Source: a phage. Taken from it: 64,000 nt of DNA. The translations under genes were made by a program, and so were the position numbers. Positions 1,586-61,902 of this stretch are shown in pieces. How positions within the stretch are numbered: the first letter of the stretch is position 1; every line of letters starts with the position of its first letter. The stretch is taken from assembly GCA_036930585.1 (NCBI GenBank), contig GCA_036930585.1_3066.1; one strand, 5' to 3'. The notes beneath the pieces are model-generated. The model did not search any database. It saw only the letters and a list, made by a program, of their open reading frames with translations, and was not told the DNA's origin.

Positions 1586-1659
1586 AACATTTCCTTTAGT
1601 TAATTAAGGGTTTTATAATCCGTGGGAGTATTATACTCTACTCCCAAGAGTTTGTAAAC

Positions 1660-1992: not shown

Positions 1993-2047
1993 AATGTTCT
2001 CCTCAAGTTACAGGCTCATAATATCTCAATCATGAGCCTGTGTAAAC

Positions 2048-5415: not shown

Positions 5416-5421
5416 GTTATA

Positions 5422-6030
5422 TTATTTATTACGTGAAAAAGACTGTTCTATCAATTCTGGACACTTTCGTTCTATCCATTTTCTAGCTTTTTGTGGGCTT
5501 ATACCTATTATTTTAGCAGCTTTACTAACCCATCCAAATTTAGAATAATCGATTTTAACTAATTCTTCGTAAATTTCATCAGTTAAAATCTTTTCATTAA
5601 TATTTACCAGTAAATGATATAATTTGTTATCATTAGCAATTTTAATGAATCTTTTATAGTTTCCGCCTTTACTTAAACCTAATGAAGTAATTGCAGATGA
5701 TATAGTAGCCGAATTTAATAATGCGTTTAAAATTTCTTCATCACTAACATTATAACGCTTTTTATTATTTTTAATATTTTTACCAGCAAAAGTATCAGTT
5801 TGCGAATGACAGTTTGGACATAATAATCTTAAATTTGATTTAAGATGATTTTTGTTATTTCCATCAATATGGTCTAATTGCAGAACAATATGCTTATTTT
5901 GCCATTTTGAAATTTTACAAATTGCACACTCATATGGAAAAATATTTTCTTTTATTATTTTGTCTTTCAGCTTTCCTGTACTAAAATTTGGATGTTTTCC
6001 TTCAAAAATTTCAGCTAATTTAGTATCCAT
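5422..6030 (-). CDS. free-standing HNH homing endonuclease (about 202 aa)
   Basis: HNH motif CAICK...LQLDHIDGNNKNHLKSNLRLLCPNCH; basic C-terminal DNA-binding region; track start 6054 appears non-ATG, first ATG at 6030 (MDTKLAEI); abuts the tRNA cluster. Confidence 0.75.
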   Translation of the reverse strand: MDTKLAEIFEGKHPNFSTGKLKDKIIKENIFPYECAICKISKWQNKHIVLQLDHIDGNNKNHLKSNLRLLCPNCHSQTDTFAGKNIKNNKKRYNVSDEEILNALLNSATISSAITSLGLSKGGNYKRFIKIANDNKLYHLLVNINEKILTDEIYEELVKIDYSKFGWVSKAAKIIGISPQKARKWIERKCPELIEQSFSRNK

Positions 6031-6104
6031 AATATGATTCCCAATTATTAACAAAGGCTCTCAAATAAGAACCCTTGATGATAGAGGGTATTAATCAGTG
6101 CGAT

Positions 6105-6433: not shown

Positions 6434-6832
6434 TCAGCCTTCATCAACAATAGTGTGAGTATTAGCATTTACGATTTGCCACCAATCAAAGCGATTAGAA
6501 TCCATCGGTTTGTTTTCATTTTCTTTGATAATGTCACGGAGTTCATCTTCAGAGAATGCTTTAGCGATTAAATCGGTATACCCACCACGTGGATAATAAT
6601 TATCACCTGCAAACAAAAGGAAATTTACCTTCCCGGAAGGAACATACGCTTCCTTAGGATACTTGTTTCCTGCGTGGTCAACCACTTCAATATAACGGTA
6701 AGGAATATCGGTTCTTTCAACCCATTGCCATGCCGCTGCAGGGGAATCGAAAGCATCTACACCTAAACGATTATCTTCATCTTTAGACGGATTATTTTCG
6801 TAATCCGCATATACATAATATTCAACGTTCAT
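6434..6832 (-). CDS. hypothetical protein (132 aa)
   Basis: ORF track; ATG start; stop 2 nt before downstream start. Confidence 0.5.
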   Translation of the reverse strand: MNVEYYVYADYENNPSKDEDNRLGVDAFDSPAAAWQWVERTDIPYRYIEVVDHAGNKYPKEAYVPSGKVNFLLFAGDNYYPRGGYTDLIAKAFSEDELRDIIKENENKPMDSNRFDWWQIVNANTHTIVDEG

Positions 6833-7017
6833 TATTCACCTTTAGAAATTTTATCCATAACAATAGCAATTAAACCAATTAAAAATGCTACTACAAGTGA
6901 AAACACATTTTCTGCTGTAGTCAATAATCCACATATAAATCCAACAAACATTGAAAAACTAAAAGCGGAAGCAGAAATTGCAATAGCAACATTTCGAATT
7001 AATTCACAACGTTTCAT
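6832..7017 (-). CDS. hypothetical small membrane protein (61 aa)
   Basis: ORF track; hydrophobic core FSFSMFVGFICGLLT...LVVAFLIGLIAIVM; promoter cassette upstream. Confidence 0.45.
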   Translation of the reverse strand: MKRCELIRNVAIAISASAFSFSMFVGFICGLLTTAENVFSLVVAFLIGLIAIVMDKISKGE

Positions 7018-7036
7018 TTTATTCTCCTCAGTAGTA

Positions 7037-7075
7037 GATAGGGTAATAGTATCACTACCCTATCTAAAAGTAAAC
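7037..7075 (-). promoter_or_regulatory. early promoter + hairpin cassette, copy A
   Basis: Minus strand GTTTAC-N18-TGaTACTAT; -10 sits in the loop of palindrome GATAGGG...CCCTATC; upstream of orf 6832..7017. Confidence 0.5.
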
Positions 7076-7309
7076 TTATTTTTTACGAAAAATTGATTTA
7101 TTTTCTGCTGCCCATTTTTCAATAACTGCAGCAGGACCAGTAACAACAATTTTATCACCGTAATCTTCTGCGGCGAGTTGACCGAAATTATCTAATGCAT
7201 CACGAAGAACTCCATGAGGCATTTCACCCATTTTATCTTTCTTGCCAGTGTAAATAAACTCAACTTTTACATCAGCAGTTTCAGCAATAAATTCTTGGTA
7301 AGTTTTCAT
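7076..7309 (-). CDS. ipI: internal protein I-like head protein with capsid targeting sequence (77 aa from MKTYQEFIAE)
   Basis: N-terminus MKTYQEFIAE matches the recalled T4 IP CTS exactly; lies just downstream of 57B as ipI does in T4; track ORF begins 4 codons earlier (MEIK). Confidence 0.65.
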   Translation of the reverse strand: MKTYQEFIAETADVKVEFIYTGKKDKMGEMPHGVLRDALDNFGQLAAEDYGDKIVVTGPAAVIEKWAAENKSIFRKK

Positions 7310-7334
7310 TTTGATTTCCATTTGGTTTTGTTTT

Positions 7335-7373
7335 GATAGGGTAATAGTATCACAACTAAAACCCTATGTAAAC
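7335..7373 (-). promoter_or_regulatory. early promoter + hairpin cassette, copy B
   Basis: GTTTAC-N18-TGaTACTAT on minus strand; stem ATAGGGT/ACCCTAT; shares 35 bp upstream sequence with copy C. Confidence 0.5.
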
Positions 7374-7385
7374 AACTTTGTGAAA

Positions 7386-7643
7386 TTATTTTAAATCTTC
7401 TAATCGTTTCTTCATCTTAGAACCATTTTTAGCAATTTCTCCTGCATCGGAGCATAATGCTAAAAGTGCTTTAACTTTAGTTTGGTCTCCTTTAAAAGAT
7501 GAAGGATCGACCGCAGCAGCAAGTTCTTTAATACGAGAGAAAAGACGCTCAGCTTCAGCTAAAGCCATTCCAAGCTTTACTTCCATACCGTGGGAAGATT
7601 CAGTGATAGTAGTTTTTGTAGCAAACTCTTTGAAAGTTTTCAT
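7386..7643 (-). CDS. internal-protein-like small protein with CTS-like N-terminus (85 aa)
   Basis: N-terminus MKTFKEFATK...ITE (CTS-like); C-terminal codons EDLK-stop and downstream 35 bp identical to the 3' end of 57B. Confidence 0.55.
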   Translation of the reverse strand: MKTFKEFATKTTITESSHGMEVKLGMALAEAERLFSRIKELAAAVDPSSFKGDQTKVKALLALCSDAGEIAKNGSKMKKRLEDLK

Positions 7644-7665
7644 TTTTATTTTCCTAATTAATTTT

Positions 7666-7704
7666 GATGAGGTAATAGTATCACTACCTCATCAGTATGT
7701 AAAC
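7666..7704 (-). promoter_or_regulatory. early promoter + hairpin cassette, copy C
   Basis: GTTTAC-N18-TGaTACTAT; stem GATGAGG/CCTCATC differs from copy A by paired (compensatory) substitutions. Confidence 0.5.
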
Positions 7705-7716
7705 AACTTTGTGAAA

Positions 7717-8401
<685 letters not shown>

Positions 8402-8402
<1 letters not shown>

Positions 8403-9127
8403 TATAGTACCTTTAGTGTATTTTTAATTTTAGAAAAAAGTTCTTCAAGAGAACCATCGTTTGTAATTACTAAATCGCCATCACGAATTGGCAATCCAGC
8501 TTCTGTAATATGTGTATCATTGGATTTTTGACCAGGACGAACTACATGAATTACTGTAGCACCCATCGCCCTAGCCGCATCCATTTCATGATCTTGACGG
8601 GTATCAGGAACGATATAATAATCATAACCTGAGTTAAATTTATCAAGATAATCTAAAGCAAATAATTTTACCCAGTACATGCGGTCGAAGTTATTAACAA
8701 TCAAATCCGTACCTAGGGCTTGCATCAGACGACGGACTGACCATTGATCTTCAATATTATTTATAACGTCAATAATCTTGTTAAATGCTACGGAATTAAC
8801 TGATTCTTGTCCTTCGTCATCAAAAACAAACACACCTTTAATTGGGCTTTTACCATTAAGATAGCAAAATGCTTGTTCCATAATCGTGATTACTTCTAAT
8901 TTAGTTAGATTTAAATTAGTCTCACGATCATAGTCAATTCCTTCAAACTCTTTACGAGTTAAGCAAGGATAGTCGGTATTTGCTGCAAATACTCCCCATG
9001 CATAAGCCAATGCATCCTTAATAGGACCAGCAAGTTGGTATTTAACTGCAGAATAATTGCTCATGATAAAATCAGCAGTAGTATCTTTTCCACTACGCTT
9101 TACACCGCTTAAAAAGATTAGTTTCAT
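8402..9127 (-). CDS. 1: deoxynucleoside monophosphate kinase (gene 1)
   Basis: 241 aa; P-loop GVKRSGKDT; matches recalled T4 gp1. Confidence 0.9.
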
Positions 9128-61847: not shown

Positions 61848-61902
61848 GATGTTTAATTGCGGTACAGGTATATAATATCATGTCCTGTACCAAAGTAAAC
61901 AA

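Follow-up and report, generated by a model that had tools for sequence, protein, structure and literature searches.

The 64,000-nt stretch of phage DNA analysed here (the window; GenBank assembly GCA_036930585.1, contig GCA_036930585.1_3066.1) carries three copies of one promoter-hairpin module, designated A, B and C, between the small genes of an internal protein (IP) locus. Our analysis indicates that these modules are very probably cassettes of the PeSL ('promoter-early stem-loop') type at the T-even IP1 locus, in which one short element would serve both as an early promoter and as a recombination joint. The evidence comes from the anatomy of the modules, from the way in which gene content changes between relatives at module boundaries, from chimeric modules whose halves no longer match, and from the covariation and non-random occurrence of the hairpin. 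The kind of element and its link to the shuffling of the IP locus are already known in outline. The source of the window is a Tequatrovirus, a T4/PST-like phage: many genomes of that genus, among them those of Escherichia phage a48, Shigella phage JK08 and the Yersinia PYps phages, share 99.5-99.8% identity with the 2-kb stretch around the modules.

Three copies of one promoter-hairpin module

All three modules are intergenic (Table 1). In the direction of transcription, module C separates 57B/Acb1 from ip5, module B separates ip5 from ip6, and module A separates ip6 from trna.4. The intergenic regions, 58-76 nt long, hold in this order the upstream stop, an AT-rich stretch (80-85% A+T in the 20 nt upstream of the -35), the promoter, a Shine-Dalgarno (SD) sequence and the start codon. 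On the minus strand they read ...TAAGTTTACTTTTAGATAGGGTAGTGATACTATTACCCTATCTACTACTGAGGAGAATAAAATG for A (ip6 to trna.4), ...TAATTTCACAAAGTTGTTTACATAGGGTTTTAGTTGTGATACTATTACCCTATCAAAACAAAACCAAATGGAAATCAAAATG for B (ip5 to ip6) and ...TAATTTCACAAAGTTGTTTACATACTGATGAGGTAGTGATACTATTACCTCATCAAAATTAATTAGGAAAATAAAAATG for C (57B to ip5), and TG precedes the -10 in each. The modules follow one another in tandem at spacings of 298 and 331 nt. A promoter scan listed only B and C, with module A falling under that scan's match threshold.

In modules A and C the perfect inverted repeat leaves the same 10-nt loop, GTGATACTAT, which holds the -10. The two stems differ at three positions, and all three differences are compensated on the opposite arm (TAGATAGGGTA/TACCCTATCTA versus TGATGAGGTA/TACCTCATCA). 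Module B combines the same promoter and -10 core with a variant hairpin, in which the outer 7-bp arms are followed by a 2x2 internal loop and then by a 4-bp inner stem (TAGT/ACTA), and which is weaker than the hairpins of A and C. Folded as the sense strand, the three have energies of -18.5, -18.1 and -17.4 kcal/mol, and their z-scores against dinucleotide shuffles lie between -3.5 and -4.3. The antisense folds are weaker (z-scores of -2.3 to -2.8).

Modules B and C further share an identical run of 37 nt, which consists of 13 coding nt (an A followed by GAA GAT TTA AAA), the TAA stop and 21 nt through the -35. Beyond this run the two copies differ in the 5' arm and match once more in the -10 core, for an overall identity of 87% over 71 nt. 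The 57B genes of most relatives end in DDLK, not EDLK; the extra identical Glu codon is thus local to the window, and the block common to the 57B and ip5 ends across phages begins at D-L-K-stop.

A sequence-only reading of this stretch had placed the three copies at 7037-7075, 7335-7373 and 7666-7704, which is within 1-2 nt of the positions found here on the minus strand, and had rightly taken the differences between the A and C stems to preserve pairing. Its description of each copy as an early promoter with a palindrome whose loop contains the -10 agrees with the anatomy, except that the geometry of B departs from that of A and C. It had also described an EDLK-stop followed by 35 identical bases; the shared EDLK-stop stands, but the identical run is the one of 37 nt, which already includes the codons and the stop.

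Cassette-bounded variation among relatives

To compare the locus across T-even phages, all 57B-trna.4 junctions were extracted from 14 GenBank phages, and a few IMG/VR contigs were added, the IMG/VR scans anchored on the 5' untranslated regions (UTRs) of trna.4 and of the first IP gene yielding only 5 and 2 contigs, respectively. Beside the window's own order of ip5 and ip6, which JK08 shares, the 14 phages show eleven arrangements, from zero to four open reading frames (ORFs) between 57B and trna.4. In slur04 no gene is present in this interval; RB51 has ip5; T4, PhiZZ6 and ECP52 have ipI; and OES_C-1 has ip6. Two genes are found in RB14 (ip5, ipI), T2 (ip5, ip7) and LF82-33 (ipI, ip7), and a split ipI followed by ip6 in 101117BS1. 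The remaining arrangements are ip5, ip9, ip7 in RB33; ip9, ip7 and one more IP in F13076; and an extra ORF, ip9, ip5 and ip6 in VR26. Among the 545 phage records that match the 701-bp locus, just 159 hold at least 80% of it.

A given IP gene can have different neighbours from one phage to the next. The modules are near-identical, yet the IP bodies share no sequence relationship. In Tequatrovirus, wherever two genes have promoters of their own, the junction between them is a copy of one module. Aligning the locus across T-even relatives was the check that the sequence-only reading had proposed, and it gave cassette-bounded presence/absence variation, not the constant gene content that would have spoken against that reading.

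Three of these loci deserve separate mention. In OES_C-1 (1790-1870) the order is 57B, ip6, trna.4, and an intact B-type module directly follows 57B; compared with the window, OES_C-1 lacks the 331-bp ip5 unit and nothing else, and its junction falls within the 5' half that the modules share. In 101117BS1 (2480-2770) ipI is present as ORFs of 32 and 58 aa that jointly span T4 IPI and lie between intact modules, and from its sequence this split ipI is probably a frameshifted pseudogene. In Gaprivervirus VR26 (2284-2930) ip9 and ip5 start only 8 nt after their upstream genes, and the promoter module is absent. Within the 121-aa ORF that follows 57B in VR26 lies an IP-like leader, MNIKTYNEFLAE, so that the true start of this ORF is probably downstream of the annotated one.

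Crossovers within the module

Two halves can be told apart in each module. The 5' half comprises the last codons and the stop of the upstream gene, TTTCACAAAGTTG, the -35 and the sequence up to the 5' arm, and it is linked to the upstream gene: the C-type is found after 57B, the B-type after ip5 and ipI, and the A-type after ip6, ip7 and ip9. The 3' half comprises the -10 core, the 3' arm, the 5' UTR and the SD sequence. It is mostly linked to the downstream gene, with ...CCCTATCAACTACTGAGGAG before trna.4 and ...CCTCATCAAAATTAATTAGG before ip5, ipI and ip7.

Four modules are chimeric, with mismatched halves and broken stems: ip5>ip7 in T2, ip5>ipI in RB14, ip9>ip7 in RB33 and ip9>ip7 in F13076. 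Their crossovers are thereby placed in the invariant GTGATACTATTA core. Chimeras arise when the two halves assort independently, and they are the products expected from recombination within the module. The sequence-only reading had proposed gene-cassette insertion by recombination between promoter-proximal repeats, and this proposal finds support in the arrangements, in the chimeric modules and in the exact indel of the ip5 unit. Its appeal to the known plasticity of T-even ipI loci was likewise well placed, as that link is already in the literature.

Evidence for selection on the hairpin

For covariation we aligned 13 distinct modules in the A/C register, two natural chimeras included. In this alignment 88% of the cells are paired, both-side changes occur in 8 of the 11 pairs, and 0 of 500 column shuffles score as high, although this count is not a probability, since the sequences were picked for a common register, are partly paralogous and are related by descent. 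When the register is slid, only 31-57% of the cells are paired. The orthologous stem next to trna.4, for example, is GATAGGGTA/TACCCTATC (ATAGGGTA) in Tequatrovirus and ATGGGATA/TATCCCAT in Gaprivervirus VR26, and Mosigvirus LF82-33 has ATAGGACTA/TAGTCCTAT and AGGATGAT/ATCATCCT at its other junctions.

The imperfections of the stems are informative as well. On the sense strand the non-Watson-Crick positions are six G.U, no A.C and two of other kinds, and across 119 modules the sense folds are lower in energy than the antisense folds (Wilcoxon p = 1e-4). The G.U bias and the stabler sense folds favour a role at the RNA level for the sense-strand hairpin.

The same architecture is found outside the IP locus. 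The strict pattern TTTACW-N16-18-TAYWAT has 7 matches in the window, all on the minus strand, where dinucleotide shuffles lead one to expect 1.2 +/- 1.1. A stem of at least 7 bp surrounds the -10 in six of the seven, and in five it is perfect over at least 8 bp, as against none in 30 shuffles. Three of these promoters lie away from the IP locus (Table 1), and their arm sequences are unrelated to those of the IP-locus modules and to one another. As an independent sample, IMG/VR was scanned for the core TTTAC-N14-GTGATACTAT, and unique matches were searched for stems across registers. Of the 37 matches with an SD sequence and ATG downstream, 15 have the -10 enclosed by a perfect stem of 7 bp or more; of the 56 without that context, none do.

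The window shuffles and the IMG/VR context control lead us to reject chance palindromes. A hairpin enclosing the -10 is thus a non-random trait general to T4-type early promoters rather than something special to the IP locus. The covariation in the 13 modules, together with the unrelated stems at other early promoters, supports selection acting on the hairpin itself, which the sequence-only reading had argued from the compensatory changes. A known RNA family was also considered and rejected; the sole hit in Rfam 15 was a snoRNA with 22 bits against a gathering score of 55 (E = 0.79, chance level).

A further early-promoter copy lies at 2355-2383 on the minus strand. It has the flanks TTTTCACAAA..TGTTTACAT and CTATCAACTACTGA in common with the IP-locus modules, and a hairpin around its -10 is absent. 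This copy and module A have the same orientation and lie 4.7 kb apart, on either side of the tRNA cluster, and the copy could thus be a partner for larger deletions.

Proposed mechanism and alternatives

We propose that each module acts as a predicted sigma-70-dependent T4 early promoter that would drive the next small gene, its parts being the AT-rich upstream region, the -35 TTTACW, a 17-nt spacer, the TG and the -10 TACTAT. This function is assigned from the match to the T-even PeSL consensus and from general features of T4 early promoters (-35, TGn, -10 and an AT-rich UP region); a literature search found no published maps of T4 start sites or 3' ends. The inverted repeat would put the -10 in a loop. 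Transcription is predicted to start within the 3' arm, so that only RNA reading through from upstream, and not the promoter's own transcript, can form the hairpin. On that RNA it may act as an attenuator, an insulator or a 3'-end stabiliser, and probably not as a full terminator. What the data show is the anatomy, the non-random occurrence, the covariation, the cassette-bounded variation and the chimeric junctions; the role of the hairpin in RNA, like the promoter activity and the mini-circle route considered below, is inferred.

As a recombination joint, the conserved parts of the module would provide short patches of homology (13-37 nt identical) for the very active homologous recombination of the phage. 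The candidate patches are the stop-proximal block with the -35 (33-37 nt), the invariant GTGATACTATTA core, and the SD region with the codons of the MKT(Y/F)(K/Q)EF leader. Exchange between neighbouring or allelic modules would delete, insert or swap single promoter-IP-gene units, and would leave the reading frames and the flanking genes intact. Only the general recombination system of the phage would be needed for this. Excised mini-circles, as in RB49/phi1, are a possible route, with predicted circles of 331 bp for ip5 and 298 bp for ip6.

Several points weigh against this interpretation. The authors of the RB49 work called the elements of T-even IP loci analogues, not homologues, of the RB49 PeSLs and described them as 'weaker, more AT-rich SLSs' (PMC2839356). 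The hairpin is lost in the four natural chimeric modules, and hence it is not essential. The covariation set is a selected one, as its sequences were chosen for one register and are in part paralogues and relatives by descent, and the asymmetry between sense and antisense folds may stem in part from strand composition and from the fixed TGnTACTAT sequence. On the sense strand no U-tract was found after the hairpins, whose tails are AAAAUUAAUU, AAAACAAAAC and ACUACUGAGG, and a terminator scan finds no site at the modules on either strand. The terminator function of the G/C-rich RB49/phi1 PeSL stems thus cannot simply be carried over. Finally, going upstream on the coding (minus) strand, the first late-promoter motif is met at 8758-8765, within gene 1. 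Late synthesis of the IP head proteins would probably need read-through of C and B, and if these proteins are made late in this way, the two hairpins cannot terminate efficiently.

Foremost among the alternatives is a hairpin that acts at the DNA level, as a cruciform or as a fold in single-stranded replication or recombination intermediates. It would offer RNA polymerase a pre-melted -10, or else draw in a structure-specific nuclease or a stalled fork, and would turn the module into an active recombination hotspot instead of mere passive homology. The -10 is in the loop in every case, the promoter's own RNA would never contain the hairpin, the crossovers map to the loop core, and Arbiol et al. 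speculate that the stem-loop is a possible target of recombination proteins (PMC2839356). A cruciform, however, would treat the two strands alike, whereas the stem imperfections on the sense strand are G.U and never A.C and the sense folds are the stabler ones. Stems of 10-11 bp with 10-nt loops are, moreover, poor cruciform formers. Passive homology also accounts for the position of the crossovers, the loop core being simply the longest stretch without variation. On balance, we consider a DNA-level hairpin unlikely.

It is quite unlikely, too, that the hairpins are intrinsic (Rho-independent) terminators by which each IP gene would be set apart as a separate transcription unit. Their intergenic position would suit such a task, and the stem-loops of RB49/phi1 PeSLs cut lacZ read-through about as much as the rrnB T1 terminator does (PMC2839356). 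The stems at the IP locus are AT-rich, however, the U-run and the scan hits are missing, and late head-protein expression from the motif at 8758-8765 would probably require read-through. A classical intrinsic terminator was rejected, as a G+C-rich hairpin followed by a U-run was not found. A bolder proposal is that the hairpin around the -10 is an active, structure-specific signal recognised by a phage or host factor, either as DNA (a cut by endonuclease VII, a fork stall) or as RNA that gates read-through between the early and late stages of infection. We give this proposal little credence; if it were true, IP cassettes would move or be expressed at rates beyond those that plain 30-40-bp homology and a plain promoter allow.

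The likeness of the modules could also be a mere relic of the tandem duplication of an ancestral IP gene with its promoter, with no ongoing module-mediated shuffling. Such an origin would account for the MKT(Y/F)(K/Q)EF leader common to the IP genes and for the tandem modules at spacings of 298 and 331 nt. It is very unlikely in view of the unrelated IP bodies beside near-identical modules, the varied neighbours of the IP genes, the chimeric modules and the exact indel of one unit. The dyad symmetry of the palindrome, centred on the promoter, might suggest an operator to which a dimeric regulator of early promoters binds. This is scarcely credible and was rejected, since the arms are unrelated between promoters (TGGGAGTA, ACAGGCTCAT, GGTACAGG, TGATGAGGTA, TAGATAGGGTA), change by compensatory pairs, and form stems whose register relative to the -10 varies.

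The locus and its neighbours

In the direction of transcription the genes of the locus run 57A, 57B, ip5, ip6, trna.4, trna.3, all on the minus strand. They were assigned from Pfam, PHROG and the annotation of relatives (Table 1), by which the earlier labels (IP-like for 7386..7643, and 57B) are correct. Judged from their sequences, ip5 and ip6 encode proteins that match T4-type internal (injected) head proteins, in that they are small, bear the leader MKT(Y/F)(K/Q)EF and are encoded at the IP locus. In T4-type internal head proteins the N-terminal capsid-targeting leader ends at a Glu cleavage site. Ip5 has the capsid-targeting leader MKTFKEF (the protein begins MKTFKEFATKTTITE) and ends in ..EDLK. 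A longer alternative ORF for ip6 (to 7321) is without an SD sequence. By sequence, no solved structures were found for Ip5 and Ip6. The trna.4 product is labelled a predicted membrane protein in the annotation of T2 and RB33. A second IP locus at the start of the window was rejected, as the ORFs at 345-2323 are without an IP leader.

Table 1. Positions of the modules, repeats, promoters and genes in the window.
Feature	Position	Strand	Remarks
Module A	7035..7074	minus	TTTACT-N17-TACTAT; -35 TTTACT 7069-7074; -10 TACTAT 7046-7051; perfect 11-bp inverted repeat TAGATAGGGTA/TACCCTATCTA around -10, arms 7056-7066 and 7035-7045; 10-nt loop
Module B	7336..7372	minus	promoter and -10 core as in A/C; -35 7367-7372; -10 7344-7349; variant hairpin, outer 7-bp arms ATAGGGT/ACCCTAT 7361-7367 and 7336-7342
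Module C	7665..7703	minus	TTTACA-N17-TACTAT, TG (extended -10); -35 TTTACA 7698-7703; -10 7675-7680; perfect 10-bp inverted repeat TGATGAGGTA/TACCTCATCA, arms 7685-7694 and 7665-7674; 10-nt loop as in A
37-nt block, copy at 57B end	7696..7732	minus	identical to 7365-7401
37-nt block, copy at ip5 end	7365..7401	minus	identical to 7696-7732
Early promoter outside IP locus	2018..2046	minus	10-bp stem ACAGGCTCAT/ATGAGCCTGT around -10
Early promoter outside IP locus	1630..1658	minus	8-bp stem TGGGAGTA/TACTCCCA around -10
Early promoter outside IP locus	61872..61899	minus	8-bp stem GGTACAGG/CCTGTACC around -10
57A	8172-8402	minus	
57B (anti-CBASS nuclease Acb1)	7717..8175	minus	Pfam PF23474, E = 2.5e-60; fixed upstream flank of IP locus
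ip5 (internal head protein, 85 aa)	7386..7643	minus	phrog_3499, E 1e-49; ip5 annotated in JK08, RB14, T2, RB51
ip6 (internal virion protein, 77 aa)	7076..7309	minus	phrog_8111, E 1e-52; N-terminus MKTYQEFIAE; ip6 annotated in JK08, VR26
trna.4 (61 aa)	6832..7017	minus	phrog_1692, E 6e-35; T4 annotation; fixed downstream flank of IP locus
trna.3	6434-6832	minus	

Internal proteins, injected alongside the phage DNA, disarm the restriction systems of the host; Ip1 blocks one GmrSD enzyme and Ip2 another (PMC12373910; PMC3012670). With Acb1 encoded by 57B, the IP genes have a counter-defence neighbour. A joint that exchanges one gene at a time, each with its own promoter, would partly explain how fast the T-even counter-defence set is retuned.

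Three further observations concern the surroundings of the IP genes. The 5' UTR of trna.4 carries GAGGAG, which contains GGAG, in its SD region, both at 7024-7029 of the window and at the equivalent sites in all relatives, and GGAG is absent from the UTR before ip5 (TAGGAAAA). GGAG is the motif cut by the T4 RegB endoribonuclease (PMC1702504). Over the whole window the late-promoter motif TATAAATA has 26 occurrences where 10.2 are expected; most are on the plus strand beyond 11 kb, in keeping with the late structural genes there.

Finally, the window has an HNH endonuclease gene at 5417-6036 (ORF 5422-6054, minus strand; phrog_14736, E = 6e-124) in the position that tRNA-Gln occupies in JK08. 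The alignment with JK08 stops at the tRNA-Leu/tRNA-Gln boundary and picks up again just beyond tRNA-Gln, and ARAGORN did not find tRNA-Gln in the window. From its sequence context, the HNH gene looks like a homing-endonuclease insertion that displaced a tRNA gene.

Comparison with known systems

The closest known elements are the PeSLs of PST and T4. Modules A, B and C match exactly the promoter consensus TTTACW-N17-TAYWAT given in the paper that describes them (Comeau, Arbiol & Krisch 2014, PMC4122927). Like the elements described there, all are intergenic, have a stem-loop and carry the SD sequence and ATG at their 3' end; they also adjoin genes that differ between close relatives, and the same paper links PeSLs to the shuffling of the IP locus. 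One difference from the elements as they are described there is that the stem encloses the -10 in the modules of the window.

For RB49/phi1, promoter activity, terminator activity and mini-circles have been shown experimentally (Arbiol et al. 2010, PMC2839356). Those PeSLs resemble the present modules in being composites of an early promoter and a stem-loop, which in one of the two commonest subclasses overlaps the -10, in flanking small accessory genes, and in that indels between relatives leave a 'single, chimeric PeSL'. The crossovers mapped in them fall in the stretch from the -10 to the ATG or SD sequence. They differ in having near-perfect TTGACA/TATAAT promoters and stems made of G-runs and C-runs (PMC2839356).

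The mobility of the IP locus itself has a longer history, and repeats at the T-even IP locus were later described as PeSL-like (PMC2839356, PMC4122927). The locus discussed in that history is the interval between 57B and trna.4, which is also the one considered here. Polymorphic T-even IP loci were reportedly the subject of Repoila, Tetart, Bouet & Krisch (1994, EMBO J 13:4181), whose locus is said to be this same interval, with ipI, ip5, ip6, ip7 and ip9 as alternatives that share a conserved 5' regulatory region and leader.

More distant parallels can be drawn. Integron gene cassettes, a comparison made by Arbiol et al. (PMC2839356), are likewise single genes gained or lost at short repeats, possibly via circles. 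They differ in that the integrase and the attC/attI sites are absent here, each cassette has its own promoter, and general homologous recombination is presumed. The promoters of the phage N4 virion RNA polymerase also place a small DNA hairpin in an early promoter. The N4 hairpins have stems of 5-7 bp and loops of 3 nt and are recognised as structures by a phage-encoded polymerase; here, the promoters consist of a standard sigma-70 -35/-10 pair, and natural chimeras do without the hairpin.

Taken together, the modules show, as far as their sequences go, every structural feature of a PeSL, namely the promoter, the stem-loop, the intergenic layout and the location at indel boundaries with chimeras. 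Because the link to the IP locus has also been published, the finding is a correct rediscovery. To the published PeSLs it adds the chimeric junctions that place crossovers in the -10 core, the exact indel of one cassette and the G.U bias in the stem imperfections, which are modest refinements.

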